This document shows, one piece after another, positions 18,027-62,348 of a stretch of 64,000 nucleotides of DNA (position 1 is the stretch's first letter; every line of letters starts with the position of its first letter). Where the stretch lies: NCBI GenBank assembly GCA_033581555.1, contig JAVQSZ010000002.1, positions 32,001 to 96,000 of the forward strand, written 5' to 3'. The stretch is from Nitrososphaerota archaeon. GTDB lineage: Archaea; Thermoproteota; Nitrososphaeria_A; Caldarchaeales; Calditenuaceae. The translations under genes were made by a program, and so were the position numbers. Under the pieces are notes generated by a model that worked only from the letters and a program-made list of their open reading frames with translations, was not told where the DNA came from and did no database searches.

Positions 18027-19119
18027 GGTCAGGATAGAGGGGTACACCGACGTCTGGGTCTACTGCGAGCACGAGGACGGCCGTCTCACCAGGGCGACGA
18101 CCGAGGTCATAGCCGGTGCCAAGAAGATCGCCGAGAGGGTCGGGATGAAGGTCGTCGGCGTCCTGATGGGCTACAACCTCGGCGACCTCGTGAACGAGCC
18201 GATCTACTACGGGGCCGATAAGGTGATCTACTGCGACGACCCCCGCCTCAAGGACTACCAGGTCCTGCCGTACACGACCGTCCTCTCCGACATGGTCCTG
18301 AAGCTGAAGCCGTGGGCGCTGCTCTTCGTGACCAGCGAGATCGGGAAGGACCTCGGACCGAGGGTCGCCTATAGGACGAGGACGGGTCTCGCCGCGGACG
18401 TGATCGACCTGATAGTGGAGGACTTCATCATGAACCTGCCCACGGGCCGGTACGTCTACAAGAACTGCATAGCTCAGGTGAGGCCCGACTTCGCGACGAG
18501 GATCGCGAAGATCTTCACGCCGAAGCACAGGCCCCAGATCAGCAGCGTGAGGCCCGGGAACTTCACGCCGTTGCCGAGGGACGAGAGCAGGACCGGTGAG
18601 GTGATCAAGTGGGAGCCACGGTTCAACGAAGACGACTTCCAAGTGGAGGTCCTCGAGACGAGGCGCCTCCCGAAGAGCGAGGTGAAGCTCGAGGAGGCGA
18701 ACGTCGTCGTCAGCCTGGGGCTCGGGATATTGAGGGACGCCACGGGGAACCCAAGGGACCCGAGGGAAGCCTACAAGATGGCGGAGGAGCTGAAGAGGCT
18801 GATACAGGAGAAGTTGAGGCTGAAGGCGGAGATCGGCTCGAGCAGGGCCCTGATCTACGCCCAGCTCAAGGAGCTCGAGGGCCTGATCACGAAGGAGAGG
18901 CAGGTCGGCCAGACGGGGAAGACCGTTGCTCCTGACGTATACATCGCCCTAGGGATAAGCGGAGCCCTCCAGCACAGGGTCGGGATGCAGAGGGCGAAGA
19001 AGATCATCGCGGTTAACACGGACCCGAACGCTCCCATCTTCCAGATCGCGCACTACTGCGTCGTCGGGGACCTCTACGAGTTCCTCCCGAGGCTGATCGA
19101 GGAGCTGAGGTCGATCTGA
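18001..19119 (+). CDS. fixB: Electron transfer flavoprotein alpha subunit (FixB)
   Basis: RQVGQTGKTV, GISGALQH and AVNTDPNAPIF motifs. Confidence 0.92.
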   Translation: MSSQLQSIEVRIEGYTDVWVYCEHEDGRLTRATTEVIAGAKKIAERVGMKVVGVLMGYNLGDLVNEPIYYGADKVIYCDDPRLKDYQVLPYTTVLSDMVLKLKPWALLFVTSEIGKDLGPRVAYRTRTGLAADVIDLIVEDFIMNLPTGRYVYKNCIAQVRPDFATRIAKIFTPKHRPQISSVRPGNFTPLPRDESRTGEVIKWEPRFNEDDFQVEVLETRRLPKSEVKLEEANVVVSLGLGILRDATGNPRDPREAYKMAEELKRLIQEKLRLKAEIGSSRALIYAQLKELEGLITKERQVGQTGKTVAPDVYIALGISGALQHRVGMQRAKKIIAVNTDPNAPIFQIAHYCVVGDLYEFLPRLIEELRSI

Positions 19120-19120
19120 G

Positions 19121-20821
19121 TTGGGCTACGACTTCGACGTCATAGTTGTCGGAGCGGGGCCCGCCGGATGCGCGGCCGCGATGAAGCTGGTCCAGAACGG
19201 CGTCGACGTCGCCCTTCTGGAGCGCGGCCCCCTCGCGGGGAGCAAGAACGTCTCGGGCGGGGTCCTGTACCTGGACTACATCCCGGGCTACACGGTGATC
19301 GACGTCTTCCCCGACTTCGTCGAGAGGGGGCCGGTCGAGAGGCGGATCGTCTCGCACGAGGTCCTCTTCGTCACCGAGGCCACTCGCTCCAACGGCACCG
19401 CGTCGTACAAGGTCAGGAGGGTCGACGAGCGCTCTTTCCTGACAAGGCTCGGGGTCACGGGATTCAACTACACCGGCGAGAGGGCCTACTCGGTCCTCAG
19501 GGCGAGAATGGACCGGTGGATGGCGAACAGAGTCCAAGAGGCTGGGGGAGTGTTGAACACCTGCACCACCGTGGAGCACCTCCTCTTCGAGGACGGAAGG
19601 GTGGTCGGGGTTCGGACCAGCGACGAGGAGCTGAGGTCGAAGCTGGTGATCGATGCGAGCGGCGTCACGTCGAACCTCGTGGTCGAGGCGGGACTGAGGC
19701 CGAAGCTCGAGCCGTACCAGGTCTATCACGGCGTCAAACACGTCTTCAAGCTGAAGCCCGAGCTCATCGAGGAGAGGTTCGGGGTCGGGCAGGGCGAGGG
19801 CAAGGCGATCTACTTCGTCGGGCCCTTCATGAGGGGCGTGAGCGGAGGCGCCTTCCTCTACACGAACAAGGACACCCTCAGCGTCGGGATCGTCGTCTCA
19901 CTGGACTCGTACCTGAGGCGCGCGGCCGAGGACCCGGTCAACGTCGGGAAGCCGATGGACATGCTGGAGGAGTTCGAGGCACACCCTGCGGTCTCCAGGT
20001 ACCTCGAGGGCGCAGAGCTCGTCGAGTATTCGGCACACAACATACCGAAGGGCCACAAGACGTTCCTCGAGAAGCCCTACAGGGCTGGGTTCCTGGTGAC
20101 CGGCGACGCGCTTGGAGCCTTCGTCAAGATCGGTGGCCTCATCGACGGCATGAGGAGGGCCATCGCTACCGGGATAATGGCGGCCGAGGTCGCGCTGAGG
20201 TGCATCGCGGCCGACAAGTTCGACGAGGACGCGCTCTCTCACTACAGGGAGCTCCTAAGACCGATCCACAGGGACATCAGGAGGTCCGCCACCAACTCCG
20301 CGATAAGCGAGGGCCGGATCGGGTACGGTTTGGGCCCGAGGCTGCTGCTCGCGACCGGAGGGGAGCGGGTGATCTCGGCGTCGAGCAACGCTCCGCATTC
20401 GGGGTCGAGGGACGTCATCAAGAGGGTCCAAGAGCTCACGGGCATGCTCCAGTACGACGAGGACCACCACTACAGCCACATCAAGGTCGACATCGACGCC
20501 GCGTCCGCCTTCGCCCTGAAGCAGTGGGTGCCGGCGTGCCCGGTCAACTGCTACACGCTCCTGCTCGACAAGGGCGTCTTCGCGTCCTACAGAGACCTCT
20601 ACCTCTTCAACCTCAACAGGGCGATGTCCGAGGGGCTCTCCGAGGAGGCCGCGAGGGCCAGGGCGCTCAAGGAGACCCTCGAGGACGTGGCGAGGGCGAG
20701 GCTTAGGTTCGACTATGTGGCGTGCGTCGCGTGCGGGACTTGCGGCGTGATAGGCCCGAAGGGCGTCGTGGACTTCGGACACGAGAGGCGTGGCCACGGG
20801 GTCATCTTCAGGTACGGCTGA
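19121..20821 (+). CDS. fixC: FixC-like FAD oxidoreductase fused to a FixX-like ferredoxin
   Basis: GAGPAG, GSKNVSGG and GGAFLYTNKD motifs; C-terminal ACPVNCY and CVACGTC...GVIFRYG. Confidence 0.88.
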   Translation: MGYDFDVIVVGAGPAGCAAAMKLVQNGVDVALLERGPLAGSKNVSGGVLYLDYIPGYTVIDVFPDFVERGPVERRIVSHEVLFVTEATRSNGTASYKVRRVDERSFLTRLGVTGFNYTGERAYSVLRARMDRWMANRVQEAGGVLNTCTTVEHLLFEDGRVVGVRTSDEELRSKLVIDASGVTSNLVVEAGLRPKLEPYQVYHGVKHVFKLKPELIEERFGVGQGEGKAIYFVGPFMRGVSGGAFLYTNKDTLSVGIVVSLDSYLRRAAEDPVNVGKPMDMLEEFEAHPAVSRYLEGAELVEYSAHNIPKGHKTFLEKPYRAGFLVTGDALGAFVKIGGLIDGMRRAIATGIMAAEVALRCIAADKFDEDALSHYRELLRPIHRDIRRSATNSAISEGRIGYGLGPRLLLATGGERVISASSNAPHSGSRDVIKRVQELTGMLQYDEDHHYSHIKVDIDAASAFALKQWVPACPVNCYTLLLDKGVFASYRDLYLFNLNRAMSEGLSEEAARARALKETLEDVARARLRFDYVACVACGTCGVIGPKGVVDFGHERRGHGVIFRYG

Positions 20822-28422: not shown

Positions 28423-28500
28423 GCCCCGGTCGTATAGCCAGGTCAAGTATACCGGCCTTTCGAGCCGGGGACCCGGGTTCAAATCCCGGCCGGGGCACCA
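28423..28500 (+). tRNA. tRNA-Glu (TTC), CCA encoded, no intron
   Basis: Acceptor GCCCCGG/CCGGGGC-A-CCA; anticodon arm CCGGC-CTTTCGA-GCCGG; T loop GGTTCAAATCC. Confidence 0.96.
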
Positions 28501-33315: not shown

Positions 33316-34368
33316 ATGAGCCTTCCGAGCTACGTGGGCTCCATGAAGGGCAGGTCGTTCCTGAACACGAACGACTTCACGAGGGAGGAGATCGAGGAGG
33401 TCCTGAAGGCCGCGAGGGACCTGAGGGAGAAGTTCAGGTCACGGGTCCCTACGCCCTACCTCCCGGGGAGGACGCTCTTCATGCTCTTCTACAACAGGAG
33501 CCTAAGGACCAGGAACTCCTTCGAGGCCGGCATATTCCAGCTCGGGGGCCACGCGCACTTCCTCAGCCCTCAGGACGTCTACACCCCGACCCTCCCTGAG
33601 GATATGGTCCCGTATCAGACCGAGTCGATCGCGGACGTCGCGAGGGTCCTGAGCAGGTACGGCGACGCGATCGCGATCAGGATCTACGGGGACGCCGCGA
33701 AGTGGCACATAGGTAGGGGCCACAGGGTCGTGAGGGAGTTCGCAAAGTGGAGCTCGATCCCGGTGTTGAACATGGAGGACGACCTCTACCACCCGTTTCA
33801 GGCGCTCGCGGACATCATGGCCATCACCGACGTCGCCCCTAACCCGAGCGGGAAGAAGTTCGTCGTCTCCTACGCCTATTCAGGTGGGCTGAAGCCGCTC
33901 GCCGTCCCGCAGAGCTGCGTCCTGATAGGGACGATGTTCGGGATGGACGTGGTCCTGGCTCACCCGAAGGGCTTCGAGCTGGAGGAGGGAGTGATCAAGG
34001 CTTGCGAGGAGAACGTTGACAGGTACGGCGGGAGCTTCGAGGTCGTCCACGACATGAAGGAGGCCTTCGAGGGCGCGGACTTCGTCTACCCGAAGGCCTG
34101 GTCGCCAAGAGGCTTCTTCCCGCCGTACAACGGCAAGGTCGACAAGGAGGGCGCGGTGGAGTACCAGAACAGGTTCAAGGACTGGATCTGCACCCAGGAG
34201 CTGATGGACCTGACGAGGAGGGGGAAGTACATGCACTGCGGCCCGGCGGACAGGGGGCAGGAGGTGACGGACGACGTGATCGACAACCCCGAGTACTCGC
34301 TTTACTTCGAGCAGGCCGAGAACAGGCTGCACGTGCAGAAGGCAGTGATGTGCATGGTGATGGGCTAG
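33316..34368 (+). CDS. YgeW-like carbamoyltransferase (second OTC-superfamily enzyme)
   Basis: [36 protein letters not shown] and HCGP motifs; lacks the OTC SMG loop. Confidence 0.8.
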
Positions 34369-35906
34369 CCCGCGCCCCTGGCCCCCAGCATCATCACTCC
34401 CACCTGCTCCAAGCTCGCCGAACCCCTCTCCAGTATTCCCACCATCTCGCCCTTGTACATCACGCCTATCCTGTCGCTCATCGCGAGGAGCTCCTCGAGG
34501 TCGTCGGAGAGGAGGACGATCGCGACGCCCTTCGACTTCAGGTCTAGGAGGAGCCTCCTGACGAAGTCGGTCGCCCCCACGTCGAGTCCTTTCGTCGGGT
34601 ACGCCGCGAGGACGAGCCGCGGCAGCTCTCCGGTCGGGCACGCGAAGAGCTCCCTCGCGATCACCAGCCTCTGGAGGTTGCCGCCGGAGAGGGTCTGGGC
34701 CTTCGCGGTCGCGGACCTAGTCACGATCGAGAGCTTCCCGATCAGCTCCTCGGACCTCCTCCTCATCAGCTTCCTGTTCAGTATCCCGGCCCTCGAGTAG
34801 GGAGGCCTCCTGTAGCACTTCAGCAAAAGGTTCTCGGCGACCTCCAAGCCCAGCCCTACGCCCTTCTGTGGCTCCGGGACGATCATCGAGACACCCTCGA
34901 GGACCAGGTCGTAGGTGTGCGCGTTAGTGACGTCCATCCCCATGAGGATTACCCTCCCCCTCGATACCTTCCTGAGCCCGTAGATCGCCTCGAGGAGCTC
35001 GTCCTGACCGTTCCCCGCCACCCCAGCTATCCCGAAGATCTCGCCCCTCCTGACGCTGAACGAGACCCCCTTCACTGCCAAGTGTCCCCTCTCGTCCCTC
35101 ACGTGGAGGTCCTCGACCACCAGGACCGGCTCTTGCGAGGGCGGAGGAGCGTGCGGGTAGGAGAGCCCCACCTCCCTCCCTATCATCAGGGAGACCAGCT
35201 CCTTCATGGAGACCTCGCTAGTCCTCCTGACCGCGACGACCCTCCCCTTCCTCATCACAGTCACCCTGTCGCTCACCCTCATCACCTCCTCCAGCTTGTG
35301 CGTCACCAACACGACCCCCATCCCGGAGTTGGCCATCGCCCTCACGCTCTCAAAGAACTGGGCGGTCTCCTGGGGCGTGAGGATCGACGTAGGCTCGTCG
35401 AGGATGAGGACCTTCGCCCTCCTCACGAGCATCTTGAGGATCTCGACCTGCTGCTTCTGGGAGGCGGTCAGCTGCCAGACGTAGTCGTCGGGGCTCACGT
35501 TCCAGCCGTACCTCGCGACCAGCTCCGAGAGCATCGACCTCAACTTGCCGTAGTCGAGCACGATCCCGGCCTCCTTCAGGCCCAGGACGACGTTCTCGAG
35601 GACCGAGTGCTTGGGGATCAGCTTGAACTGCTGGTGGACCATCCCGAGTCCGTGCCTTATCGCGTCCTTCGGCGACCTAATGTTGACCCTCCTGCCCTCT
35701 ATGAGGATCTCGCCCTCGTCCTTGCTGTAGAGCCCGTAGAGTATGTTCATCAGCGTCGTCTTCCCCGCTCCGTTCTCGCCCAGCAGCGCGTGGACCTCTC
35801 CCGCGTAGAGGGTGAAGTCGACCCCGTCGTTGGCCACGACCCCTCCCGGGAACCTCTTCGTTATCCCCCTCATCTCGACCAGGGGGATCAGCTGGGGATC
35901 CGTCAA
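34365..35906 (-). CDS. Nucleoside/sugar (CUT2, NupA/YufO-like) ABC transporter ATP-binding protein with two ABC domains
   Basis: [38 protein letters not shown] and PTKGLDVGA motifs. Confidence 0.9.
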
Positions 35907-35977
35907 CTCGTTATAGTGAATGCCGTTCAGCAATAAAAGAGTGATGGACGGTGCGCTGCGGTTTTGACGGCATGAGG

Positions 35978-36208
35978 TCAAACGACGACCGCGGTCTCCG
36001 TCCTCTCGACCCCCTCGACGGCGTGGACGCGCTCGACGATCAAGGACCCGAGGGCCTGCAGGTCGGACGCCTCGACGAAGGCGATAACGTCGTACCTCCC
36101 CGTGACGTTGCAGACAGCGAGGCATCCCTGGACCTTCGTGAGCTCCTGGGCGACCCTCTTCGCGTAGCCAGGCTTGGTCCTGATCAGTACGTACGCTTGA
36201 ACGGGCAT
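35978..36208 (-). CDS. Stand-alone Lrp/AsnC ligand-binding (RAM) domain protein
   Basis: AYVLI..KPG...[12 protein letters not shown]...GVERTET pattern. Confidence 0.88.
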
Positions 36209-36249: not shown

Positions 36250-37446
36250 TCAGTATGTCAGCCTCCCGAGAAGGGTCAGCTTGACGGCCTCACCGAACGT
36301 CGCGTGGGCGCCGGGCGGGACGACTAGGAACGCGTTCGCCCTGGACGCGGTGTAGAGGTTGTTGACGCCCTTAGGGAGCACCTTCGCCCTGACCCCCTCT
36401 CCGGATGGCTCAAGCGATGCGAAGTAGACGCTGCTGACGCCCGGTCTTCCGGGAGCGTCGCCGTCCAGACCGGCAGCGAGCTCGGGTGGAGGCGACCTGA
36501 GGCGGTAGAGGGACCTCAGGTAGGGCGCCCCGATCAGATGGAGGCCAGCGATCGCGGCTGTCAGGGAGCCGGGAAGGATTAGCCAGCTCCGCTCCCTCAC
36601 CATCACCAAGCCGACCGGCTTGCCGGGGTGGAGCCGCACGCCGTGGAAGAGGACCTCTGCGCCCTCCATCTCCGCGTAGGCTTTCCGGACGACGTCGTTG
36701 CTCCCGCTCGAGGCCCTCCCGACGGTGACGACCAGGTCGTTGGTCTCAGCGGCCCCCTTCACCCTGCCCACCAACCCGTCGACCTCGTCCCCGACCGCTT
36801 CGATCGAGGTAACATCGCAGCCCATCTGGCGGAGGTACGATGCGACGACGTGGGCGTAGTCGTTCGGGATGGCCCTCCCCGACTCGCTCAGGAGCTCACC
36901 GCCGACCGAGATCACGGCACACCTCGGCCTCCTGTACACGGAGACCCTCCTTACGCCCAGCTCCGAGAGGACGGCGACCTGCGGAGGCCTGAGGAGCTCG
37001 CCGCGCTCGACGACCCGATCGCCGGCCCTGAAGAATGAACCCCTCCTCTCGACGTTCTCCCACCTCTCGGCCATCCCCCTGAAAACCAGCTTCTGGCCCT
37101 CGAGCTTGACGTGCTCCGTCCTGATCACGACGTCCGATCCCGGCGGGATCGGCTGTCCGGTGAGGACGCTCACCGCCCACGGCCCATCCCCCGGAGACTC
37201 CGAGAGCTTGAGCCTCACCGCGCCCCCGCCGTCCCTCCGCTCGAGGAACTCGAACTTGGTCGCGAAGCCGTCGAGGGCCGCCCTGTCGACTCCGGGGACG
37301 TCGGAGCCCGAGAAGACCGGCTCTGCGACGACGCGACCTACCGCCTCCTCGATCGGCAGCTCGATCAGCTCCAGCGTCCTCCGGGACCCCGCGGAGACTG
37401 CAGCCCTCTGGGCCTCCTCGAGGGTCACCAGCTTCAGCGCACTCAC
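36250..37446 (-). CDS. moeA: Molybdopterin molybdotransferase
   Basis: AALDGFA, TGQPIPPG.D.VI..E, GGEL, HPGKP and LPG motifs. Confidence 0.88.
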   Translation of the reverse strand: MSALKLVTLEEAQRAAVSAGSRRTLELIELPIEEAVGRVVAEPVFSGSDVPGVDRAALDGFATKFEFLERRDGGGAVRLKLSESPGDGPWAVSVLTGQPIPPGSDVVIRTEHVKLEGQKLVFRGMAERWENVERRGSFFRAGDRVVERGELLRPPQVAVLSELGVRRVSVYRRPRCAVISVGGELLSESGRAIPNDYAHVVASYLRQMGCDVTSIEAVGDEVDGLVGRVKGAAETNDLVVTVGRASSGSNDVVRKAYAEMEGAEVLFHGVRLHPGKPVGLVMVRERSWLILPGSLTAAIAGLHLIGAPYLRSLYRLRSPPPELAAGLDGDAPGRPGVSSVYFASLEPSGEGVRAKVLPKGVNNLYTASRANAFLVVPPGAHATFGEAVKLTLLGRLTY

Positions 37447-37453
37447 CGAGACC

Positions 37454-37948
37454 TCACCCGGTGGGCCCGCGGACCACCCGCAGGACCTCCGAGAGGAGCT
37501 CGTCGAACTGATCCGGCAGGAGGTACCTCGCCGATGGGTTGGGCGCAAAGGAGACCGGGATGTCGTTCGGTCCCACGTCCTCCCCCTCCTCTCTGAGCAC
37601 CCTGATCCTGACGACGCCCTCGGAATCCTGAGGCATCATCGACTGGAAGCCCTCGACGACGAGGAAGTCCACGTCGCCCGCGAGCGCCCTCAAGTCCCCG
37701 ACCCCCCTAATCGCGACGGACCTGTGGATCACCGCGGTCTCCCTCGGGGAGGAGACGATCACCGGGTCGGCACCGGACTGGTAAAGCCTCCAGCTGTCGG
37801 ACCCCTCCCTTTCGATCGTGAAGTCGGCGTGGTGGACGTGCTTCGCCGCCGCGACCCTGTACCCCATCGACCTGAGCGCCGAGACGATCATCGAGGCGAG
37901 CCTCGTCTTACCTGCCTTCTTGAACCCGAAGACCGCTATGACCCACAC
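37454..37948 (-). CDS. mobB: Molybdopterin-guanine dinucleotide biosynthesis protein B
   Basis: GFKKAGKT, KHVHH, GSDSWR and DFLVVEGF motifs; start uncertain. Confidence 0.88.
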   Translation of the reverse strand: MWVIAVFGFKKAGKTRLASMIVSALRSMGYRVAAAKHVHHADFTIEREGSDSWRLYQSGADPVIVSSPRETAVIHRSVAIRGVGDLRALAGDVDFLVVEGFQSMMPQDSEGVVRIRVLREEGEDVGPNDIPVSFAPNPSARYLLPDQFDELLSEVLRVVRGPTG

Positions 37949-38034
37949 CGGCTCCTCAACGCCCCGGACCGTGAAAAGCTTAACCCGATCCCTCCCGGTT
38001 TTCATCTTATTACTCACGGCGAGGTATTCGAAGT

Positions 38035-39042
38035 GTGGGCTCGATACCCCGTCTCGGGCTCTATCTTCAGGACATGCACGTCAGGGAAATGATGAGGTAC
38101 GCGCAGATCGCTGAGGAGCAAGGTTTCGAGTCGGTTTGGATCGCCGAGTCCAGGCTCTCGAGAGACGCGATAGTCCCGATGACCGCCATCGCCGCCGTGA
38201 CAGAGAGGATCAAAGTTGGAGCGGGCGTGATCAACACCTGGACAAGGAACGCCGCGTTGATCGCTCAGACATTCGCGACCCTCGACGAGCTCGCCGACGA
38301 CAGGATCCTGCTGGGCCTCGGGGCTTGGTGGGACCCGCTCGCGTGGAAGGTCGGGATCGAGAGGAGGGAGCCCCTTAAGTGCATGAGGGAGTACGTCGAG
38401 ACGATCAGGAGGCTCCTCAGGATGGAGGAGGTGACCCATGAGGGCGAGTTCGTCAAGCTGAGGGGCGTGAGGCTGGACGTCCTGCACGGCAAGGGTCCGG
38501 TCCCGAGGAACGTCCCGATCTACATCGGCGCCACCGGGTTCAAGATGATGGAGCTATCGGGCGAGATAGCGGACGGCGTCCTCCTCAACTACTTGGTCTC
38601 GCCTCTTTACAACGACAAGGCCATCGAGCACATCAAGGTCGGGGCCGCGAGGGCCAAGAGGAGGCTGGAGGACATCGACAGGCCCCAGCTGATAGCCTGC
38701 TCGGTCCACGAGGACGGCGACTACGCCGTCAAGCTCGCGAAGAAGCACGTAACGATGACCCTCGGCCAGCAGCCCCACATCATGAAGGCGAGCGGCGTGA
38801 GAGAGGACCTAATCGAGGAGGTTCAGAGGGCGATGGGCGGATGGCCCGCGAAGCCTGGCGGGATCGAGAGGGCGATGGAGATCGTCCCGGACGACGTCGT
38901 GAGGCTCATTACGGCATCGGGCACGCCGTCCGAGGTGAAGAGGAAGATCGAAGAGTACATGGCCCACGGCTGCACCGCGCCCCTCATCCTCCCGCTGAGC
39001 GGCGACGTCGAGTACGCGATTAGGGCCCTCGCAGCCCTCTGA
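38035..39042 (+). CDS. LLM-class (Mer-like, probably F420-dependent) oxidoreductase
   Basis: [18 protein letters not shown]...R, RILLGLG and [20 protein letters not shown] motifs. Confidence 0.88.
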
Positions 39043-39051
39043 GGTGGGACG

Positions 39052-40422
39052 ATGAAGTCCGAGAGGAAGCTGGTCAGGGGCGGAGTGTTAGTCACGATGG
39101 ACGACGAGCTCGGCGTGATCAGGGACGGAGCCGTCCTGGTCGAGGGCGAGAGGATAGCCGCGGTCGGGAAGGCCGACGAGTTGACGAGGACGGAGAAGGT
39201 CGACGAGGTCGTCGACGCGAGGGGGAGCTTCGTGCTTCCGGGGCTGATCTGCGGCCACACCCATCTGTACGGGATCGCGCTGAGGGGATCCGGCCTGAAG
39301 GTCGAGCCGCCGACTGACTTCCTCCAGATCCTCCAGAGGGTCTGGTGGCCGCTGGACGAGAGGCTGGACAACGAGGCGGCTTACGCGACGGCCCTGGCCG
39401 CGTCCATGGAGATGGCCCTCACCGGGACCACCTGCTTCGCCGACACGTACTCCGCGCCCAACGGAATCGAGGGGTCCCTCGACGCGATCGCAAGGGCGGT
39501 CGACGAGGTCGGGATCAGGGGCCTGATCTCCTTCGAGGCGACGGAGAGGCGGAGCGGCGATGAGGGCCTTAGGGGGCTGAAGGAGAACGAGCGGTTCCTC
39601 TCGAGCTCATCCTCGCGGAGGGCGATGGGGATGGTGAGCGTCCACGCGTCCTTCACGGTCACCGACGAGCTGATCGAGAGGGCCGTAGAACTCTCGAGGC
39701 GGTTCGACTGCCCGATCACGGTCCACGTCTCCGAGGGGCCGAACGACGTCTACCACAACATCGAGAGGTACGGCATCAGGACCGTCGAGAGGCTCGAGGG
39801 GCTGGGGTTGCTCTCGCCGAGGGCTGTCCTGGCCCACTGCGTCCACCTCTCACCGAAGGAGATATCGATCCTCGCGAGGACGGGGGCGAACGTCGCCCAC
39901 AACCCGATGAGCAACATGCTGAACGCCGTGGGCGTCTCCCCGGTCCCGGAGATGCTCAGGGAGGGCGTGAACGTCTGCCTCGGGAACGACGGCTACGTCT
40001 TCGACGCCTTCGAGAACGCGAGGGCCGCGTTCCTGGTCCACAGGGTCCACAGGAGGGACCCGACCGCGCTCTCCGCGAAGGTGGTGCTAGAGATGGCGAC
40101 CGTCAGGGCTGCTGGGGCTTACGGCCTGAAGGACCTAGGGTCCCTGAGGCCCGGGAAGCTCGCGGACCTGATCGTCGTGAGGCCGACCGTAATGGCTACG
40201 CCCCTCACCGGAGACCCGTACTCCTACGTCGTCAACGGGCTGAGGGGATCGGACGTAAGGCTCGTGATGGTCGGCGGCGAGGTCGTCGCTAGAGACGGGA
40301 GGCTCACGAGGCTCGACCAGAGGGAGGCGGAGGAGAGGGTCCTCAGGTCGATCGAGAGGCTCTGGGAGAAGTTGGGCGAGGGGCCGCTCAGGGCCGTCGA
40401 GCCTCTGCGCGGAGGTGCGTGA
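39052..40422 (+). CDS. SsnA-like metal-dependent amidohydrolase
   Basis: PGLICGHTHLY, DFLQILQRVWWPLDERL (SsnA-like), HASFT, HVSEG, HNPMSNM.N and LGNDG motifs. Confidence 0.85.
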   Translation: MKSERKLVRGGVLVTMDDELGVIRDGAVLVEGERIAAVGKADELTRTEKVDEVVDARGSFVLPGLICGHTHLYGIALRGSGLKVEPPTDFLQILQRVWWPLDERLDNEAAYATALAASMEMALTGTTCFADTYSAPNGIEGSLDAIARAVDEVGIRGLISFEATERRSGDEGLRGLKENERFLSSSSSRRAMGMVSVHASFTVTDELIERAVELSRRFDCPITVHVSEGPNDVYHNIERYGIRTVERLEGLGLLSPRAVLAHCVHLSPKEISILARTGANVAHNPMSNMLNAVGVSPVPEMLREGVNVCLGNDGYVFDAFENARAAFLVHRVHRRDPTALSAKVVLEMATVRAAGAYGLKDLGSLRPGKLADLIVVRPTVMATPLTGDPYSYVVNGLRGSDVRLVMVGGEVVARDGRLTRLDQREAEERVLRSIERLWEKLGEGPLRAVEPLRGGA

Positions 40423-41684
40423 GCGTGTCCTTCGTCAGGGAGCTGGTCTGCTCGAGGTGCGGAAGGAGCTACCTGCCGACCGAGAGGCCGGTCCTCTGCG
40501 CCTCCAGGGACCTCGGGAGGCTCGACGTGGTCTACGACTACGAGGAGCTGAAGGAGTTCCTGACCAGGGAGGCGGTCTCGAGGAGGCCTTGGGCCGGAGG
40601 GGTCTGGAGGTACTGGGAACTGCTCCCTGCCGCGATGGAGTTCGGCGCGCCCTTCGACGAGGGCCTGACACCGCTGTTCTGCGCCAGGAGGCTCAACGAC
40701 CACCTCGGCCTGAGGAGGATGAGGCTGAAGGACGAGACCCGGAACCCCACGAGCTCCTTCAAGGACAGGGCGATGGCCGTGGGAGCCGCGAAGGCCGCCG
40801 AGTGGGGTGCGGAGACGGTTGTGACCGCATCGAGCGGGAACGCTGCCTCAGCGCTAGCCGCATACGCAGCGAGCCTGGGCCTGAAGTGCGTCGCGTTCGT
40901 CCCCGAGAACGTCTCGCTCGGGAAGGCGGCGCAGCTGATCTCCTACGGCGCGAGGCTCTTCAGGGTCAAGTCGGTCGAGGAGGGGAGGGACCCGACGGTC
41001 CAGGCGATGCTGAGAGCGGTCGAGGAGTTCGGGTGGTACCCCTGTCCGAGCTTCGGCCCCTTCAACCCGTACCAGGTCGAGGGCCCCAAGACCATCGTCT
41101 ACGAGGTCGCGGAGCAGTTGGGCTGGAGGTTCCCGGACGCGTTCATCGTCCCGACTGGCTCGGGGTGCCTTCTCGCGGGGATCTGGAAGGGCGTGAGGGA
41201 TCTGGTCGAGCTGGGGCTCGTTGAGGGCGAGATGCCGAGGTTGATAGCGGTCCAGCCGGAGGGGAACCAGCCCCTGGTGAGGGCTGTCAGGAAGGGACTC
41301 TCCTTCAGCGATGTCGTGCCCGAGAGGTCGCCCAAGTCGATCGCCTCCGGGTTGCTGGACCCGTACCCCTGGGACGGCGACGCGGCGATGGAGGGGATAA
41401 GGAGGACCGGTGGGACAGGGGTCGCGGTCACCGACGAGGAGATCCTCGAGGCGGTCAAGCTCCTAGCCAGCAAAGCAGGCGTCTTCGCGGAGCCCTCGGG
41501 CGCGGTCGGAGTCGCGGCCGCGGTGAGGCTGCAGGACGAGGGCCACCTCGACGGGTCGGACGAGGTAGTAGTGCTGGTCACGGGTTCGGGGCTGAAGGAG
41601 GTCGAGAAGCTGGTCCCGACGGTCGGTGAGATACCGCTGATAACGCCTGACGTCGAGCAGTTGAGGCGCTACCTGGGGACCTGA
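40419..41684 (+). CDS. Threonine synthase-family PLP enzyme
   Basis: N-terminal CxxC; EGLTPL, NPTSSFKDR, ASSGNA, EPSGA and TGSGLK motifs; coupled to the SsnA-like gene. Confidence 0.85.
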   Translation: MSVSFVRELVCSRCGRSYLPTERPVLCASRDLGRLDVVYDYEELKEFLTREAVSRRPWAGGVWRYWELLPAAMEFGAPFDEGLTPLFCARRLNDHLGLRRMRLKDETRNPTSSFKDRAMAVGAAKAAEWGAETVVTASSGNAASALAAYAASLGLKCVAFVPENVSLGKAAQLISYGARLFRVKSVEEGRDPTVQAMLRAVEEFGWYPCPSFGPFNPYQVEGPKTIVYEVAEQLGWRFPDAFIVPTGSGCLLAGIWKGVRDLVELGLVEGEMPRLIAVQPEGNQPLVRAVRKGLSFSDVVPERSPKSIASGLLDPYPWDGDAAMEGIRRTGGTGVAVTDEEILEAVKLLASKAGVFAEPSGAVGVAAAVRLQDEGHLDGSDEVVVLVTGSGLKEVEKLVPTVGEIPLITPDVEQLRRYLGT

Positions 41685-43069
41685 GCCCTCGTCGCCCTAT
41701 GGACGTACCGCCCCCTCCCGGGCCTCGAGGTGACCTCTCCGTCCTCAGCGACCACTTCGCCCCTCGAGATCGTCAGCACGGGGTACCCCGTGACCTCAAC
41801 CCCCTCGTAGATCGAGAAGTCGAGCCTGCTGTGGAGGACGTCCTTCCCGAGCCTCACCCTCCTCTCCGGATCGATCAGAACGATGTCCGCGTCCGCTCCC
41901 ACCGCGATCCTCCCCTTTCTCGGGTAGAGGCCGTAGACCCTCGCGGGGACGTAGGAGGTCAGGCGGACGAAGCGTTCGAGGCTGATCCTGCCCTTCCTCA
42001 CTCCCTCCGAGAAGAGCGTCGGAACGATCGTCTCAGTCCCCTGGACGCCGCCCGGGATCTCCCTGAAGTCCCTCGACTTGAGCTTGTGGGCAGAGGCATA
42101 GGGCGCGTGGTCGCTCCCCACCACGTCGATCTGCCCCGAGGCGAGCCCGGACCAGAGGGCCTGGGCGTCCTCCCGCGTCCTCAGGGGCGGCGCCATGACG
42201 AAGAGCCCACCGTCGGGCCTCGAGTAGACCTCCTTCGTGAGGAGGAGGTAGTGGGGACAGGTCTCAACCCACATCCTCGCCCCGATCCCCCTCGCGGCCT
42301 CCGCGGCCCTCAACCCCGCTCCCGAGGAGAGGTGGACGACCAGGACCTCTGCCCCGGTCACCGACGAGAGGTAGCCGAGCCTCAGGACCGCCTCCGCCTC
42401 CGAGACCGCCGGCCTGCTCTCCTCGTACCTCGAGACGTCCGCACCCGCCTCCTCCACGACCCTCTCGGTCTCCTTCAGGACAATCCACTCGTTCTCGCAG
42501 TGGCAGAGGACCAGCACCCCGGCCCTCGAGGCCCAGCTCAGCGCCCTGAGGAGGGACCCGTCGTCGATCATCAGCCCCCTCCTGCTGTAGGCCGTGAAGA
42601 CCTTGACCGAGGAGACGCCCCTCCCGCCCACGAGCTCGTTCAGCTCAGCCTCTACCCTCGGACCCCACTCGAGGACGCAGACGTGGAGCCCGAAGTCGAT
42701 CCTCGACTTCGCTGACGCGGCCGCCAGCCTCTCCTCGAAGGCCCCGACGATCGATCCTCCCCTCTCGGGCGTGACGAAGTCGATGAAGGTCGTGACGCCA
42801 CCACACGAGGCCGCTGAGCTGCCCGAGTCGAAGTCATCAGCGGTCGCCATCCCACCGCCGTACTGCATCTCGAAGTGGACGTGCCCGTCTATCGCACCAG
42901 GGACGACCACTTTCCCGGAGGCGTCGATCACCCTTTCGGCCCGTGCCTCGATCGACTTCGCGATGACCGCTATCTTCCCGCCCTCGACCCCAATCTCGCA
43001 CTCGAAGGTCCCGAACGGGTCAGCCACCCTGCAGTTCCTCAGGACCAGGTCAAACCCCAACTCCCGCAC
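41669..43069 (-). CDS. hydA: Dihydropyrimidinase/D-hydantoinase
   Basis: PGAIDGHVH, GGVTTFIDF, SVKVF.AY, HCEN, ETCPHYL and SDHAPY motifs. Confidence 0.9.
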   Translation of the reverse strand: MRELGFDLVLRNCRVADPFGTFECEIGVEGGKIAVIAKSIEARAERVIDASGKVVVPGAIDGHVHFEMQYGGGMATADDFDSGSSAASCGGVTTFIDFVTPERGGSIVGAFEERLAAASAKSRIDFGLHVCVLEWGPRVEAELNELVGGRGVSSVKVFTAYSRRGLMIDDGSLLRALSWASRAGVLVLCHCENEWIVLKETERVVEEAGADVSRYEESRPAVSEAEAVLRLGYLSSVTGAEVLVVHLSSGAGLRAAEAARGIGARMWVETCPHYLLLTKEVYSRPDGGLFVMAPPLRTREDAQALWSGLASGQIDVVGSDHAPYASAHKLKSRDFREIPGGVQGTETIVPTLFSEGVRKGRISLERFVRLTSYVPARVYGLYPRKGRIAVGADADIVLIDPERRVRLGKDVLHSRLDFSIYEGVEVTGYPVLTISRGEVVAEDGEVTSRPGRGRYVHRATRAQVPR

Positions 43070-43079
43070 CGCCTTGAGC

Positions 43080-44864
43080 TCAGGCCGGGACGACGGCCGC
43101 GACCGGGTCGACGAACCTCTGCGCGTTGACGTCGAAGAGACCCTTGTCGGTAACGCGGGCCTCGGGGATGACCGAGAGCGTGAGGAGTGAGACGATCGGC
43201 ATGTACGGGTGGTCGATCGCACCGAGCCTCTCCAGCGCCCTTCTGAATCCCCTCATCTTCTCCGCCATGACCCGCACGGGCTCCTCGGACATCAGCCCCG
43301 CGATCGGGAGCTCTATCCTCGAGAGGACCTCGCCGTTCAGGGTCGCGACCAGTCCTCCCTCCGACTTGACGACCTCTGTCGCCGCGAGGTGCATGTCCCT
43401 CGGGTCGGTCCCTATCACTGCGAGGTTGTGGGAGTCGTGGGCGACCGTGGTCGCGATCGCGCCCCTCTCCATGAAGCCCTTCACGAACCCGTAGCCCCTC
43501 TTCCCAGTGCCCCTGTGCCTCTCCATTACCACCATCAGCGCGACGTCGCCCAGCAGGGCCCTACCTCCCCTGACTTCGACCTCGGCGGTAGACCTCTTCG
43601 TCACGATCATCTCCAGGAACGCCCTCGAGACGTCTTCCACGGACGGGTCGGGCCTCCTGAACTCGATCACGTTCAGGACCAGCTTGCCGTCGCTGATCGG
43701 CGGCCTGAACTCGAAGTCTTCAGGCCTCAGGTCCTTGACCCTGACGGTGCCCAGGGCTCTCTTGTCGAACCTCCTCTCCGGGAGCTCCGCGACGAGCCTT
43801 CCGTCCCTCGCGACGACCTTGCCCCCGAAGAGCACCATCCTCACGTCGATCCTCTTCAGGCTACCGAGGACTACTAGGTCGGCGAGCTTACCAGGCGAGA
43901 CCGCTCCCAGCTCGAACATCCTCATGTGGGTCGCGGGCCTCAGTGTCACGCTCCGGATCGCCTCGACCTCGTCCATGCCGGCCTCGATCATCGACCTGAC
44001 CACGAAGTCCAGGTGTCCCCTCTCCGCGAGCGTGTCGGGCATCACGTCGTCCGTCACAAGGATCACCCGGTTCCAGGGGCTCGGGAGAGAGCCGATCGAC
44101 CTCACGAACCTCCTTGGGTCCAGGATGTAGGGCCCCCTCAGCTTGACGTACATCCCCCTCCTGAGCTTCTCGACCGCCGACTCGACAGTGAAGTTCTCGT
44201 GGTCTGCCTCAGGGCCCGTCGCGACGTACGCGTTCAGCCTCGCGCCTGAGAGGAGTACGCAGTGCCCGTCGATCACGCACCTCCTCCTCCAGCCTATCTC
44301 GAGGATCCGCATGAACTTCTCACGGCCCGCGAGGACCGACTCGAAGTCCATCACCTCGCCCAGCCCCACAATCCCTTCCCAGTCGAGGGCCCTCTCGACG
44401 TCCTCCGGGGTGATCTCGGCCCCAGCCGTCACCGCATCGGACTCCGGGACGCAGGTCGGGACGAAGTAGGTGATCCTCATCGGTAATTCCCTAGAGTTCT
44501 CGAGCATCATCCTGACGCCCTCGATCCCGAGGACGTTCGCGATCTCGTGGGGGTCAGCGCAGACCGTCGTGGTGCCGTGCGGGAGGACGGCCTCCGCGAA
44601 CCTAACCGGGGTGACCATGCTGCTCTCGATGTGGAGGTGGGTGTCGATGAAGCCCGGCACCACCACGCCCTCTACGTCCAACACGCCCTCGGCGCTCGGA
44701 GCGTCCTTGCCCACGTAGACTACCCTGTCCCTGTATATCCCGACGTCGGCCCATTCTACCTCACCCGAGTAGACGTTGAGGACCTGGGCGCCCCTCAAAA
44801 GGAGCGTGAGTTTCCTTTTGCCCTGCGCAGCCTCGACGAGCTCCCTGATGTACTGCGCGTCCAT
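43080..44864 (-). CDS. ade: Adenine deaminase (Ade/AdeC family)
   Basis: DTHLHIESS, GTTT..DPHEIANV, GLGEVMD, TDD and VAHDSHN motifs. Confidence 0.92.
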   Translation of the reverse strand: MDAQYIRELVEAAQGKRKLTLLLRGAQVLNVYSGEVEWADVGIYRDRVVYVGKDAPSAEGVLDVEGVVVPGFIDTHLHIESSMVTPVRFAEAVLPHGTTTVCADPHEIANVLGIEGVRMMLENSRELPMRITYFVPTCVPESDAVTAGAEITPEDVERALDWEGIVGLGEVMDFESVLAGREKFMRILEIGWRRRCVIDGHCVLLSGARLNAYVATGPEADHENFTVESAVEKLRRGMYVKLRGPYILDPRRFVRSIGSLPSPWNRVILVTDDVMPDTLAERGHLDFVVRSMIEAGMDEVEAIRSVTLRPATHMRMFELGAVSPGKLADLVVLGSLKRIDVRMVLFGGKVVARDGRLVAELPERRFDKRALGTVRVKDLRPEDFEFRPPISDGKLVLNVIEFRRPDPSVEDVSRAFLEMIVTKRSTAEVEVRGGRALLGDVALMVVMERHRGTGKRGYGFVKGFMERGAIATTVAHDSHNLAVIGTDPRDMHLAATEVVKSEGGLVATLNGEVLSRIELPIAGLMSEEPVRVMAEKMRGFRRALERLGAIDHPYMPIVSLLTLSVIPEARVTDKGLFDVNAQRFVDPVAAVVPA

Positions 44865-44966
44865 ACCGATTGGGCGTCGCCGGTGTTAATTTAGGTGAGG
44901 GGCCATGACCCCGGGACCGCGGCCTGGACAAACCGATATCTCTCGGGGCTTGTGGGAAAGGGGAGC

Positions 44967-45593
44967 ATGGAGCAGGTCCAGGGGAGGCTGCCTCCAGGTC
45001 AGAGGTACGTCCGGGACTTCATCGTCTACGCGGCGCTGGGGATACCGAGGGTCGACCTGAACAGCTACAGGCTCTCGGTGACTGGTCTCGTCGAGAGGCC
45101 GCTCTCGTTCACCTACGAGGAGCTGCTCAGGATGCCGATGAAGAAGTACGTCAGGGACGCCCACTGCGTTACCAAGTGGTCGGTGAAGGACGTCGAGTGG
45201 GAGGGAGTTCAGATCAGGTACCTCGCCGAGCTCGCCGGCGTCAAGCCCGAGGCCAGGTGGGTGATGTTCAGGTGCCTAGACGGCTACTCGGCCCCCGTGC
45301 CGGTAGAGGACGCGCTGGACGAGTACTCTATCGTCGCTTTAAGGATCAACGGGAGGCCCATACCCCTCGAGAACGGGTTCCCCGCGAGGCCCTTCATCCC
45401 CCACCTCTACCTCTGGAAGAGCGCGAAGTGGTTGAACGAGATCGAGTTCATCGAGGAGTATGAGGACGGGTTCTGGGAGAGGCCAGAGAACGGCGGCTAC
45501 CATGAGCGGGGGAACGTCTGGCAGGAGGAGAGGTTCAAGGACGCGGGCGGGTTCCACTCGAGGAGGAGGCCGATCAGGCCGAAGGGTTTCTGA
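44967..45593 (+). CDS. Sulfite oxidase-like molybdopterin-binding oxidoreductase (cytoplasmic)
   Basis: [27 protein letters not shown] and GFWE..GYH motifs. Confidence 0.9.
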
Positions 45594-51900: not shown

Positions 51901-51974
<74 letters not shown>

Positions 51975-57538: not shown

Positions 57539-59044
57539 GTGAACTCCCAGTGGCCTTCACTTTCCAAGGAGCAAATCTTCGCGAGGCTGAGGGAATACGC
57601 CTCAGAGGACGCGGAGCCGTCGAGCGGGAGGCTCTTCACGATCGCCTTCGAGTCCGGCCTCGACGACCTGAAGGAAATCGCCCTCGAGGCCTTCAGGGCC
57701 TTCATGGACAAGAACATGCTCGACTTCACGGAGTTCCCCAGCGTGATCAGGATGGAGAGAGATGTGGTCGGGATCGCGACAAGGTTGATGAACGGCGACG
57801 AGCAGGTCGCGGGGACCTACACCTTCGGCGGTACCGAGAGCGTCTTCCTCGCGGTGAAGGCCGCGCGCGACTGGTTCATCCTCGGGAGAGGAACGATCAC
57901 GATCCCCGAGTTAGTGATCCCCGTCACCGCGCACCCGTGCTTCGACAAGGCCGCCGAGTACATGGGCCTAAAGGTCAAACGAGTGAAGGTGGACCCGGAG
58001 ACGCTTCAGGCTGATGTCGAGGCCGTGAAGGAGGCGATCACGGAGAACACCGCGATGGTCGCAGCTTCTGCTCCGAACTGGCTCTTTGGGACTGTCGACC
58101 CAGTTAAGGAGATGGCCGAGGTCGCGCAGGACGGTCGCATCTGGTTCCACGTCGACGCTTGTGTCGGCGGCTTCGCGCTCCCGTTCATGAGGAAGCTGGG
58201 CGAGGACGTCCCGGACTTCGACTTCAGCGTCGAGGGGGTCACCTCGATATCGCTGGACCCGCATAAGTACGCATACGCGCCCATAGGAGCATCGGTGGTC
58301 CTCTTCAGGAAGGAGTACTACAAGATGTATTCCCAGTTCGCCTGCCTGAGGTGGCCGGGTTACCCGATCGTGAACCCCGCCGTGCTCTCGTCGAGGTCCG
58401 CGGGACACCTGGCCTCCACGTGGGCAGTCCTCCACTACTTGGGCGAAGAGGGTTACCTGCGGCTCACCAGGTCGATAATCGAGGCGAGAGACCTGATCTC
58501 CCGCGGCGTGGAGAAGCTGGGTTACAGGGTTATGGGGAGGCCGACGGTCATACTCGCCTTCACCTCGGAAGACCTCAACCTCTTCAGGCTCTCCGACGAG
58601 ATGACGAAGAGGGGCTGGTACCTCTTGCCTCAGAGGGGCGTCCCTGAGATGGGGATACCCCCAAGCGTCCACCTCACGATCACTCCGCTCAACAGGAGAA
58701 CCTGCGATGAGATGGTGAGGGACCTGGAGGAGTGCACCGATCTCGTGAGGAGGCTCCCGCCCAGCGAAGCAGAGGGACTGATCGAGGGACTAGGTCTGAT
58801 CATGCGGCTGATCACGCCCCAGGAGTTCGACCTGGCCTCATTGGGGGCTCTGATGAGGGAGCTTGAAAGGAGCCTAGAGGTCTACGGCCCCGCGCTCCTC
58901 AAGGCCCTTGGCCTGAAGGAGGGCCTCCCCAAGGAGATGTCGACTATATATCAGCTCTTCAACAACCTGCCGCCGAGTGTCACGGAGCTCCTCGTGAACT
59001 ACGTTGTCATACAGCTCTTCCGGGGAGCCGGACGACCCGTGTGA
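57539..59044 (+). CDS. PLP-dependent group II decarboxylase / sphingosine-1-phosphate lyase-like protein
   Basis: GGTES, HPCFDKAA, HVDAC.GG and SLDPHKY motifs. Confidence 0.85.
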   Translation: MNSQWPSLSKEQIFARLREYASEDAEPSSGRLFTIAFESGLDDLKEIALEAFRAFMDKNMLDFTEFPSVIRMERDVVGIATRLMNGDEQVAGTYTFGGTESVFLAVKAARDWFILGRGTITIPELVIPVTAHPCFDKAAEYMGLKVKRVKVDPETLQADVEAVKEAITENTAMVAASAPNWLFGTVDPVKEMAEVAQDGRIWFHVDACVGGFALPFMRKLGEDVPDFDFSVEGVTSISLDPHKYAYAPIGASVVLFRKEYYKMYSQFACLRWPGYPIVNPAVLSSRSAGHLASTWAVLHYLGEEGYLRLTRSIIEARDLISRGVEKLGYRVMGRPTVILAFTSEDLNLFRLSDEMTKRGWYLLPQRGVPEMGIPPSVHLTITPLNRRTCDEMVRDLEECTDLVRRLPPSEAEGLIEGLGLIMRLITPQEFDLASLGALMRELERSLEVYGPALLKALGLKEGLPKEMSTIYQLFNNLPPSVTELLVNYVVIQLFRGAGRPV

Positions 59045-59073
59045 ACTCCGCACCTGTAGTGCGTATCTGACCG

Positions 59074-60693: not shown

Positions 60694-60778
60694 GCCTTTG
60701 CGACGGTGAACCTAAATTTTAAGCCTTTCCTTTATTGCTCATTAGGTCGGTCATAGATTTATTAACCACGAGGGGGTA

Positions 60779-62245: not shown

Positions 62246-62302
62246 GTCACCCGATAGTCCGAAGGCGAACTCGAGCTCCGAACTTCGGCGATCACAAGCC
62301 CC

Positions 62303-62324
62303 CTTTTCGCTTAACCGGAGCGAA
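62303..62324. terminator. Short hairpin TTTCGCT-TAACCGG-AGCGAAA between convergent genes
   Basis: Inverted repeat in the 100-bp gap between the 4HBD-like gene and cas6. Confidence 0.25.
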
Positions 62325-62348
62325 ATCGACCTCTGACCGACAGCTCGG

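Follow-up and report, generated by a model that had tools for sequence, protein, structure and literature searches.

The LLM–SsnA-like–PLP gene cluster

The DNA considered here is a stretch of 64,000 nucleotides (the window; contig JAVQSZ010000002.1, positions 32,001 to 96,000) of a Nitrososphaerota archaeon of the Calditenuaceae, below called the host, whose assembly GCA_033581555.1 (1.43 Mb, 72 contigs) has a completeness of 90.6%. Three co-oriented genes in this window are our subject; they encode a luciferase-like oxidoreductase (LLM), a cyclic amidohydrolase resembling SsnA, and a pyridoxal phosphate (PLP) enzyme:

38035..39042, plus strand: LLM, an F420-class luciferase-like oxidoreductase, Mer-like but not Mer (335 aa, GTG start)
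39052..40422, plus strand: SsnA-like cyclic amidohydrolase (456 aa, ATG start)
40419..41684, plus strand: threonine-synthase-like PLP enzyme (421 aa, GTG start)

The open reading frame coordinates bear out the arrangement of three co-oriented genes described in an earlier note on this DNA. Nine bases, holding GGTGGG, separate the LLM stop (39042) from the ATG of the SsnA-like gene (39052), and the GTG of the PLP gene at 40419 overlaps the SsnA-like TGA at 40420–40422 (GTGA), with GGAGGTG just upstream. The LLM start is itself preceded by GAGGT at 8 nt. In Pfam and NCBIfam profile searches of the window proteins, where the cut-offs are curated family thresholds, the three proteins match Bac_luciferase (229 bits), Amidohydro_1 (201 bits) and PALP (261 bits), respectively.

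In E. coli, ssnA lies beside ygfK, as the earlier note had stated: in locus L082 the end of ygfK, at 24159, is followed by the start of ssnA at 24162. The pathway encoded by the ygeW–xdhD cluster of E. coli and Clostridium was solved in two papers (Li et al. 2025; Liu et al. 2025). According to their available text, XdhD or DOPDH converts urate to 2,8-dioxopurine, which is reduced by YgfK or by the PydA-like UacX; the hydantoin is opened by HyuA, the ureido groups are removed by YgeW and YqeA, or by UacY, with YgeY, and YgeX yields pyruvate. Formation of ureidomethylhydantoin from 2,8-dioxopurine needs YgfK and SsnA together, neither being sufficient by itself, and YgfK alone gives no product (Li et al. 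2025, available text).

Our best reading is that the window contains the core of an archaeal, F420-dependent version of this reductive uric-acid (2,8-dioxopurine) pathway. The LLM would probably be an F420H2-dependent oxopurine (2,8-dioxopurine) reductase coupled to the SsnA-like enzyme.

Conservation of the LLM–SsnA-like pair

In a survey of the phylum, 401 sampled genomes were searched with the SsnA-like protein and, in reverse, with the LLM. SsnA-like genes of at least 62% identity occur at 21 loci, and the LLM gene is directly upstream in all 21, one of them being cut by a contig end; LLMs of at least 78% identity occur in exactly the same 21 genomes. The spacing between the two genes is tight, 8–30 bp, and the order LLM–SsnA-like–PLP is found in four more genomes of the genus (L090–L092, L002). 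Since this order recurs in four genomes and the LLM–SsnA-like adjacency in 21 of 21 loci, the arrangement is not due to chance. The earlier note had allowed that the adjacency might be peculiar to the host genome; it is not.

A second survey was centred on the LLM; a pattern scan of one genome per species gave at least 594 relatives. The best 80 loci were kept and mapped by tblastn; for annotation, open reading frames were chosen with GC3 weighting, and L040 was left out of the Pfam annotation. The identity to the window LLM is 72–93% in the Nitrososphaerota, about 62% in the Bathyarchaeia and 58–64% in the Chloroflexota, Actinomycetota, Acidobacteriota and one Haloarculaceae genome, and about 100 alignment columns, including a GAWWDP motif, are invariant across 18 sequences. 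The most frequent neighbours in the best 80 loci are subunits of xanthine dehydrogenase (XDH; 50 loci) and SsnA-like proteins (47), followed by threonine-synthase-like (ThrC-like) PLP enzymes (25), carbamoyltransferases (15), adenine deaminase (13) and carbamate kinase (10). If only loci of at least 18 kb are considered, an SsnA-like gene or XDH is present in 41 out of 50.

Between archaea and bacteria the LLMs are 58–64% identical, while their SsnA-like and ThrC-like partners in these loci retain only 34–42% (L002–L081 compared with the window). This gap points to either a very strong constraint on the LLM or its separate transfer between the domains.

Other reductases in the same position

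YgfK and UacX-like genes were not found in the host genome, and YgfK/YgfT is absent from all of the best 80 LLM loci in the tblastn maps; mutual exclusivity of the LLM and ygfK next to ssnA was one of the checks that the earlier note had put forward. Nine archaeal SsnA-like loci (46–54% identity) lack the LLM. In five of them a gene of about 400 aa with DHO_dh and two [4Fe-4S] domains (UacX-type) lies within the 1.5-kb flank, and in a sixth it belongs to the same cluster; the remaining three have none, one of these having been checked over ±8 kb. The domain architecture matches UacX as described in the available text of Li et al. Both solutions are found in the host's own order, the genome G392 having the LLM and G404 the UacX-like gene. 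Judged from gene content, this looks like non-orthologous displacement in place.

In the G404 locus (L120:444-12552, G404:C1), three genes of the aldehyde:ferredoxin-oxidoreductase (tungstopterin) family and ferredoxins border the UacX-like, SsnA-like and ThrC-like genes, and the annotated stretch of L120 shows no XDH-type enzyme.

The same neighbourhoods might be explained if the LLM served nucleobase catabolism as an F420-dependent reductase or dehydrogenase, but with another substrate or at another step (xanthine, urate, a pyrimidine and a ring-opened intermediate are candidates), the SsnA-like enzyme not being its direct consumer. In the best 80 loci the LLM accompanies XDH subunits at least as often as it does an SsnA-like gene, and in five loci it is paired with a PydA-like reductase, directly after the LLM in L024 (BMP-type ABC transporter, CofE, LLM, PydA-like), L031, L051 and L075, and at a distance of about 7.5 kb in L064. 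Besides, a set of a second LLM (LLM2), an amidohydrolase and a molybdenum hydroxylase exists in sister genomes, so that the range of the family evidently extends beyond a single heterocycle. However, the coupling at 8–30 bp and the occurrence of both genes in the very same genomes suggest that the LLM is paired directly with the SsnA-like enzyme, the requirement that the reduction be coupled to SsnA (Li et al. 2025, available text) argues in the same direction, and no other candidate for the reductase is present in the host genome. We hence consider this alternative unlikely, and prefer a reductase of 2,8-dioxopurine that feeds the SsnA-like enzyme. The comparative tests (the F420 class of the protein, the adjacency at 21 of 21 loci, the lack of YgfK, the F420 genes of the host) thus all favour the earlier note's suggestion that the LLM may perform the ring reduction upstream of SsnA.

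The LLM2 set is a paralogous module (L155:6530-12552, that is, G021:C1 at about 361.5–367.6 kb; also G018:C3:815-4491). Besides LLM2, which shares 50% identity with the LLM of the window, it comprises an XDH-type molybdenum subunit, a PNPOx-like gene and two amidohydrolases, one with 35% identity to the SsnA-like protein of the window and a divergent second one. This module may serve another N-heterocycle.

Family and structure of the LLM

The LLM scores 229.1 bits with PF00296 against a cut-off of 27.9. Its top 15 NCBIfam matches, in a check put forward by the earlier note, are all F420-type LLM families, and none of them reaches its own cut-off; the best one scores 199 bits, compared to 53 bits for the first FMN-type family. 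The leading models are those of Mer (NF002619, 198.8 < 276; TIGR03555, 192.9 < 348.7). The AlphaFold2 (AF2) model has a pLDDT of 92.2. The closest solved structures are again Mer (E 2e-46; Foldseek TM 0.86–0.89 with the AF2 model), then FGD and Adf; the Foldseek rows listed to rank 28 are all F420 enzymes, and FMN-dependent LLMs come later.

In the HMMER alignment with jMer, Gly61-Val62, the site of a non-prolyl cis-peptide after beta3, under the deazaflavin (Gehl et al. 2024, available text), corresponds to G64-V65 of the LLM, invariant in the 18 sequences, although the conformation cannot be read from sequence. The carboxamide of jMer position 178 (Asn in the alignment, Gln178 in the available text of the paper) is matched by the invariant Asn185. 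In place of Asp96, which contacts the pterin, the LLM has Trp99, which belongs to the invariant GAWWDP motif; its first 17 residues, the region where jMer has the catalytic Glu6, include no Glu, the alignment not covering residues 1–13. As judged by alignment and model, the fold and the cofactor site are Mer-like and the substrate site is not. We infer that the LLM very probably uses F420.

Two other readings follow from the family itself. FMN monooxygenases also belong to the luciferase-like family, and one of them, RutA, acts on uracil; its structure (6sgg) is among the Foldseek matches, at rank 43 with TM 0.68. An FMN-dependent, RutA-like monooxygenase attacking the nucleobase ring oxidatively is nevertheless very improbable, given the advantage of more than 100 bits of F420-type over FMN-type families, the uniform F420 character of the Foldseek rows listed to rank 28, and the co-operonic F420 biosynthesis genes and Fno in the Chloroflexota (see below). 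As for a genuine Mer of C1 metabolism that by chance stands beside purine genes, the Mer models and structures are the best matches, but the scores are well below the cut-offs, Asp96 and Glu6 are not kept, methenyl-tetrahydromethanopterin (H4MPT) cyclohydrolase (Mch, PF02289) was not found in the host genome, at its 90.6% completeness and with positive controls in methanogens and Haloferax, and the neighbourhood is consistently that of purine catabolism, so that we give this reading almost no credence.

The SsnA-like amidohydrolase

The best matches of the amidohydrolase are the two SsnA models, NF005540 and TIGR03314 (family IPR017700), ahead by 66 bits and both below the cut-off (350.1 < 444 and 325.2 < 455.5). 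The identity to E. coli SsnA is 30% (E 3e-53). Archaeal proteins of this kind score 288–401, and SsnA is always their best match, whereas the paralogue from the same cluster (L120) prefers deaminase models. The Chloroflexota SsnA of L027, co-operonic with the same LLM family, exceeds both cut-offs (489 > 444, 466 > 455.5). The HxH histidines and the other metal-site residues are invariant in our alignment A2.

We built a quick maximum-likelihood tree of the amidohydrolases with limited outgroup sampling, from which open reading frames outside 380–520 aa or with stops (e.g. L040, L065, L067) were excluded. In this tree the window protein falls into an archaeal clade of 10 rows, sister to a clade of 28 rows with E. 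coli SsnA. The joint SsnA group of 39 rows has a support of 99 by the SH-like approximate likelihood-ratio test (SH-aLRT) and leaves out 12 GuaD-like rows, including a host copy on contig C5. Moreover, a candidate dearomatising reductase and uricolytic genes stand alongside. We file the protein as SsnA-like: it appears to work like SsnA, but scores under the curated cut-offs. It is proposed as a putative ring-opening hydrolase for the reduced purine. A prediction of a complex of the LLM and the SsnA-like protein gave no answer (score 0.01, mark 0.32) and counts neither for nor against a channelling complex.

F420 genes in the host and next to the LLM

The host appears to use F420, as three of its proteins exceed the family cut-offs: CofE (C7:75223-75960; 298 > 181), CofD (C3:86296-87195; 288 > 257) and Fno (C4:19893-20540; 163 > 149.8). 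A gene for a CobY/MobA-like nucleotidyltransferase lies just upstream of the host cofD; it could stand in for CofC.

The strongest evidence for the cofactor is the F420 gene context of the LLM. Among the best 80 LLM loci, homologues of CofC are present in 38, CofD in 36, CofE in 29 and Fno in 29. The locus L027 of the Phototrophicaceae contains, in this order, carbamate kinase, ThrC-like, GT2, PALP, an unknown protein, SsnA, Fno, CofE, another unknown protein, CofD, CofC, LLM, XDH (FAD/FeS), XDH (Mo) and YqeC/MobA. Fno (203.9 > 149.8) and CofC (163.8 > 105) exceed the cut-offs, and they stand with CofE and CofD between SsnA and the LLM.

Chloroflexota loci (L018–L081), for example L027:1879-4901, contain a GT2 glycosyltransferase, a second, divergent PALP protein of 465 aa and a protein of 186 aa between the ThrC-like and SsnA genes. 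The latter has no Pfam match; its homologues occur in 19, and those of GT2 in 20, of the best 80 LLM loci.

The PLP enzyme

The earlier note described the third gene as a PLP lyase; by family it is a threonine-synthase paralogue and not YgeX. The protein exceeds the threonine-synthase cut-offs (NF006050, 311.4 > 303; TIGR00260, 188 > 167.1) and has the SFKDR lysine motif. Its assignment to YgeX was rejected, as the identity to the latter is 21% (E 3e-6) and no YgeX-type family is among the best 25 NCBIfam matches. A housekeeping ThrC was rejected too, since each of the 13 genomes searched, that of the host and those of 12 relatives, has two other ThrC paralogues. Those of the host score 284.5 and 298.7 with TIGR00260, compared to 188 for the window protein.

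Among the 13 genomes, the window-type paralogue (62–100% identical) is confined to the host's genus and G018, and every such genome covered by the SsnA and LLM searches has the LLM–SsnA pair. It forms a clade of its own (13 rows, SH-aLRT 100) apart from the two common ThrC paralogues; the cluster-linked bacterial and haloarchaeal ThrC-like proteins form a separate clade of six rows. We infer that the ThrC-like enzyme is a pathway-dedicated beta-eliminating lyase, a functional stand-in for YgeX. A cysteine-synthase gene adjoins the ThrC-like gene in L005 (CysK, 362.9 > 350.95); it was dropped as a pathway member, the host homologue being in an unrelated neighbourhood on C4.

Neighbouring genes and further enzymes of the host

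The neighbouring genes relevant to the pathway are as follows:

33316..34368, plus strand: carbamoyltransferase, N-acetylornithine carbamoyltransferase (AOTCase)/YgeW-like (OTCace_N and OTCace domains; 32.5% identical to YgeW)
34365..36125, minus strand: ABC ATPase with a double ATP-binding domain, of the nucleoside/sugar (BMP-type) transporter kind (ABC_tran in two stretches)
36250..37548, minus strand: MoeA molybdopterin molybdotransferase (MoeA_N and MoCF_biosynth domains)
41669..43069, minus strand: D-hydantoinase/dihydropyrimidinase, the HyuA counterpart (TIGR02033, 445.2 > 393.25; 36% identical to E. coli HyuA)
43080..44864, minus strand: adenine deaminase (Adenine_deam_C, 174.8 bits; TIGR01178, 438.5 below the cut-off of 472.5)

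The locus thus consists of two convergent operons, LLM, SsnA-like and PLP genes on the plus strand and adenine deaminase and hydantoinase genes on the minus strand. The likely start of the hydantoinase gene is GTG at 43069, 10 bases from the adenine deaminase gene, and its 3' end overlaps that of the PLP gene by 16 bp. The best NCBIfam match of the carbamoyltransferase is N-acetylornithine carbamoyltransferase, below the cut-off (277 < 288). Relatives of the ABC ATPase (51–57% identical) belong to BMP-type transporter operons adjoining the LLM in L003–L006. Judging from its gene position, MoeA might supply the molybdenum cofactor to XDH-type enzymes.

In L005 (Ca. Caldarchaeum sp.), whose LLM and SsnA-like genes are 79% identical to those of the window, the pathway genes are together, in the order BMP-type ABC transporter, adenine deaminase, LLM, SsnA, XDH-FAD, XDH-FeS, XDH-Mo, carbamoyltransferase, carbamate kinase, ThrC-like. 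The host has orthologues of the L005 XDH (FeS 59% and Mo 61% identical) and carbamate kinase (72%) at C7:86668-91292, and of the carbamoyltransferase (80%) at C7:59046-60059; its carbamate kinase is 48% identical to YqeA. A second host XDH is on C5, with a deaminase-type amidohydrolase. The window carbamoyltransferase is of another type, 38% identical to that of L005, and its 75% identical copy in a Bathyarchaeota locus (L016:16959-20100) adjoins a carbamate kinase and a second carbamoyltransferase, a hint that a single kinase serves both carbamoyltransferases. Of the reductive uric-acid set, the host thus has candidates for XDH (C5, C7), the reductase (the LLM), SsnA, HyuA, carbamoyltransferases (one in the window, one on C7) and carbamate kinase.

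The protein set of the window is archaeal (STT3/AglB, a proteasome subunit, tRNA-intron endonuclease, Nep1, archaeal-type phosphoenolpyruvate carboxylase), and the nearest homologues of the LLM bear the names Candidatus Caldarchaeum or Nitrososphaerota. An Rfam scan of the whole window yielded two tRNAs only (28423–28497 and 51901–51974), and no RNA element upstream of the LLM. A bacterial-type scan of positions 37400–45000, ill-suited to archaea, gave no promoter-like and one terminator-like site, not above shuffled sequences. Elsewhere the window contains an electron-transfer flavoprotein (ETF) beta/alpha pair with an ETF-QO-like flavoprotein (16824–20821) and a separate gene of the ornithine-carbamoyltransferase type (1158–2147). 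At 58000–64000 the G+C content drops from about 0.65 to 0.55–0.58; this part encodes an AMP-binding enzyme, an HpaB-type hydroxylase and Cas6 (62349–63245).

Proposed pathway

Adenine deaminase, which would feed adenine into the oxopurine pool, and the XDH-type molybdenum enzymes on C5 and C7 would produce the oxopurine. The Mer-like LLM would then reduce the purine ring, most likely that of 2,8-dioxopurine, by hydride transfer from F420H2 in the dearomatising step; both this substrate and the direction of the reaction are part of the proposal. The step would be the one catalysed in bacteria by YgfK, an NAD(P)H-dependent Fe-S flavoprotein, or by the PydA-like UacX, and Fno would regenerate F420H2 from NADPH. 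The translationally coupled SsnA-like amidohydrolase would open the reduced six-membered ring at once, and the hydantoinase the five-membered one. The carbamoyltransferase(s) and the carbamate kinase of C7 would convert the ureido groups to carbamoyl phosphate and ATP, the window carbamoyltransferase acting by phosphorolysis of a ureido group to carbamoyl phosphate. Finally, the C3 amino acid that is left would yield pyruvate and ammonia through the ThrC-like PLP enzyme, whose substrate would be either diaminopropionate or, directly, a ureido-alanine.

Several observations weigh against this proposal. The SsnA-like protein is under both SsnA cut-offs and only 30% identical to its E. coli counterpart. 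Nine of the 50 LLM loci of at least 18 kb have neither an SsnA-like gene nor XDH, and the Bathyarchaeia loci combine the LLM with XDH and adenine deaminase, but their amidohydrolase is of the deaminase type only. Exclusivity of the reductases is not strict, a PydA-like gene being present in five of the best 80 LLM loci, all from the Chloroflexota. For the molybdenum enzyme forming 2,8-dioxopurine the host offers XDH-type candidates only, those on C5 and C7. A search of the host genome revealed no orthologue of YgeY or YgeX (the best hits are 24.6% and 24.5% identical), and therefore the downstream chemistry must differ from that of E. coli.

The supply of the cofactor belongs here as well. The earlier note had made F420 biosynthesis in the genome a check of its idea, and the answer is divided: CofD, CofE and Fno are present, while searches of the host genome, at its 90.6% completeness, yielded neither the FO-synthase genes CofG and CofH nor CofC. 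In the host and 25 relatives, several of which are 98–99% complete, CofH exceeds the cut-off in none of the 26 genomes, compared to 21 of 26 for CofD. Since CofG and CofH were not found, F420 has to depend on imported FO or on another route. From its gene content the host seems unable to make the FO headgroup, and the lineage may scavenge the deazaflavin headgroup.

A much wider proposition is that the Caldarchaeales and several other archaeal and bacterial lineages have a complete, ATP-yielding purine route built on F420, in which the dedicated, highly conserved LLM with its GAWWDP motif dearomatises the ring by means of F420H2, two different carbamoyltransferases act on both ureido groups by phosphorolysis and so provide two carbamoyl phosphates and hence two ATP, a neofunctionalised ThrC paralogue replaces both YgeY and YgeX through beta-elimination, and FO is scavenged from neighbours by organisms incapable of forming the deazaflavin headgroup. 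We regard it as rather doubtful in this full form.

If the proposed role of the LLM is true, purines would be a new physiological class of substrates for F420 enzymes, and the reductive uric-acid pathway would extend from gut bacteria to thermophilic archaea. The word "purine" is never used in a 2021 review of F420. The pathway would also be a clean case of non-orthologous displacement, with YgfK, UacX and the LLM each standing before one conserved ring-opening enzyme, and the FO synthase not being found suggests that it relies on a cofactor precursor supplied by the community. As the LLM is small, has a single cofactor and is probably thermostable, its chemistry should be easy to test; it could be an alternative, Fe-S-free reductase for engineered uricolytic strains.

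Comparison with known systems

As in E. coli, where ygfK directly precedes ssnA, the reductase gene comes directly before that of the SsnA-like enzyme, and the host genome has a hydantoinase, carbamoyltransferase and carbamate kinase, a PLP enzyme and XDH-type molybdenum enzymes. Unlike E. coli, the candidate reductase is an F420-class TIM-barrel LLM of 335 aa and not the 1032-aa Fe-S/FMN/FAD protein YgfK; the SsnA-like protein is 30% identical and below the cut-offs, no YgeY or YgeX was found in the host, its genes are spread over three sites of the genome, and the organism is a thermophilic archaeon.

UacX of C. difficile and the clostridial PydA-type reductase occupy the same place in the pathway, and a UacX-type gene stands beside the SsnA-like gene in other archaea of the phylum. 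They differ from the LLM in the fold and in the electron donor (FMN/Fe-S, ferredoxin), and were not found in the host genome. The window PLP enzyme shares with YgeX, 2,3-diaminopropionate ammonia-lyase, the fold-type II PLP superfamily (PF00291) and the position at the end of a similar cluster; it is distinct in its 21% identity, its threonine-synthase family and an N-terminal Cys-rich extension of about 57 aa.

Mer (jMer 8QPL, 1Z69) resembles the LLM in fold (TM 0.86–0.89, about 31% identity), in the conserved Gly-Val site and, if the proposed reaction is correct, in the reaction type, hydride transfer to a C=N-type centre. It is unlike the LLM in the residues contacting the substrate (Asp96 replaced by Trp99, no N-terminal Glu); the LLM is under the Mer family cut-offs, and the host genome is without the H4MPT pathway marker.

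A further parallel is the putative reductase of the Chloroflexota. An F420-dependent "luciferase family" 2,8-dioxopurine (yanthine) reductase was already proposed for Chloroflexota SsnA clusters by Li et al. (2025, Fig. 3c and Discussion). Hence, of the earlier note's claim that ring reduction would be a new role for this family, the idea of an F420-type reductase is upheld, and the novelty is not. In the literature on F420 with isoxanthine, dioxopurine or yanthine, only the work of Li et al. and commentary on it were found; the available text of Liu et al. (2025) mentions neither F420 nor luciferase. The network of Li et al. covers bacteria only, and in the available text neither of its versions contains archaea or an assay of the F420-type enzyme; the Chloroflexota case is presented there by neighbourhood colouring, with no analysis or assay, and threonine synthase does not appear in the available preprint text. 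New here are the archaeal members, the tight LLM–SsnA coupling, the embedded CofC/CofD/CofE/Fno context, the ThrC-like replacement and the apparent dependence on outside FO. The family is the same in both cases: the Chloroflexota proteins are 58–64% identical to the window LLM and have about 100 invariant columns in common with it.

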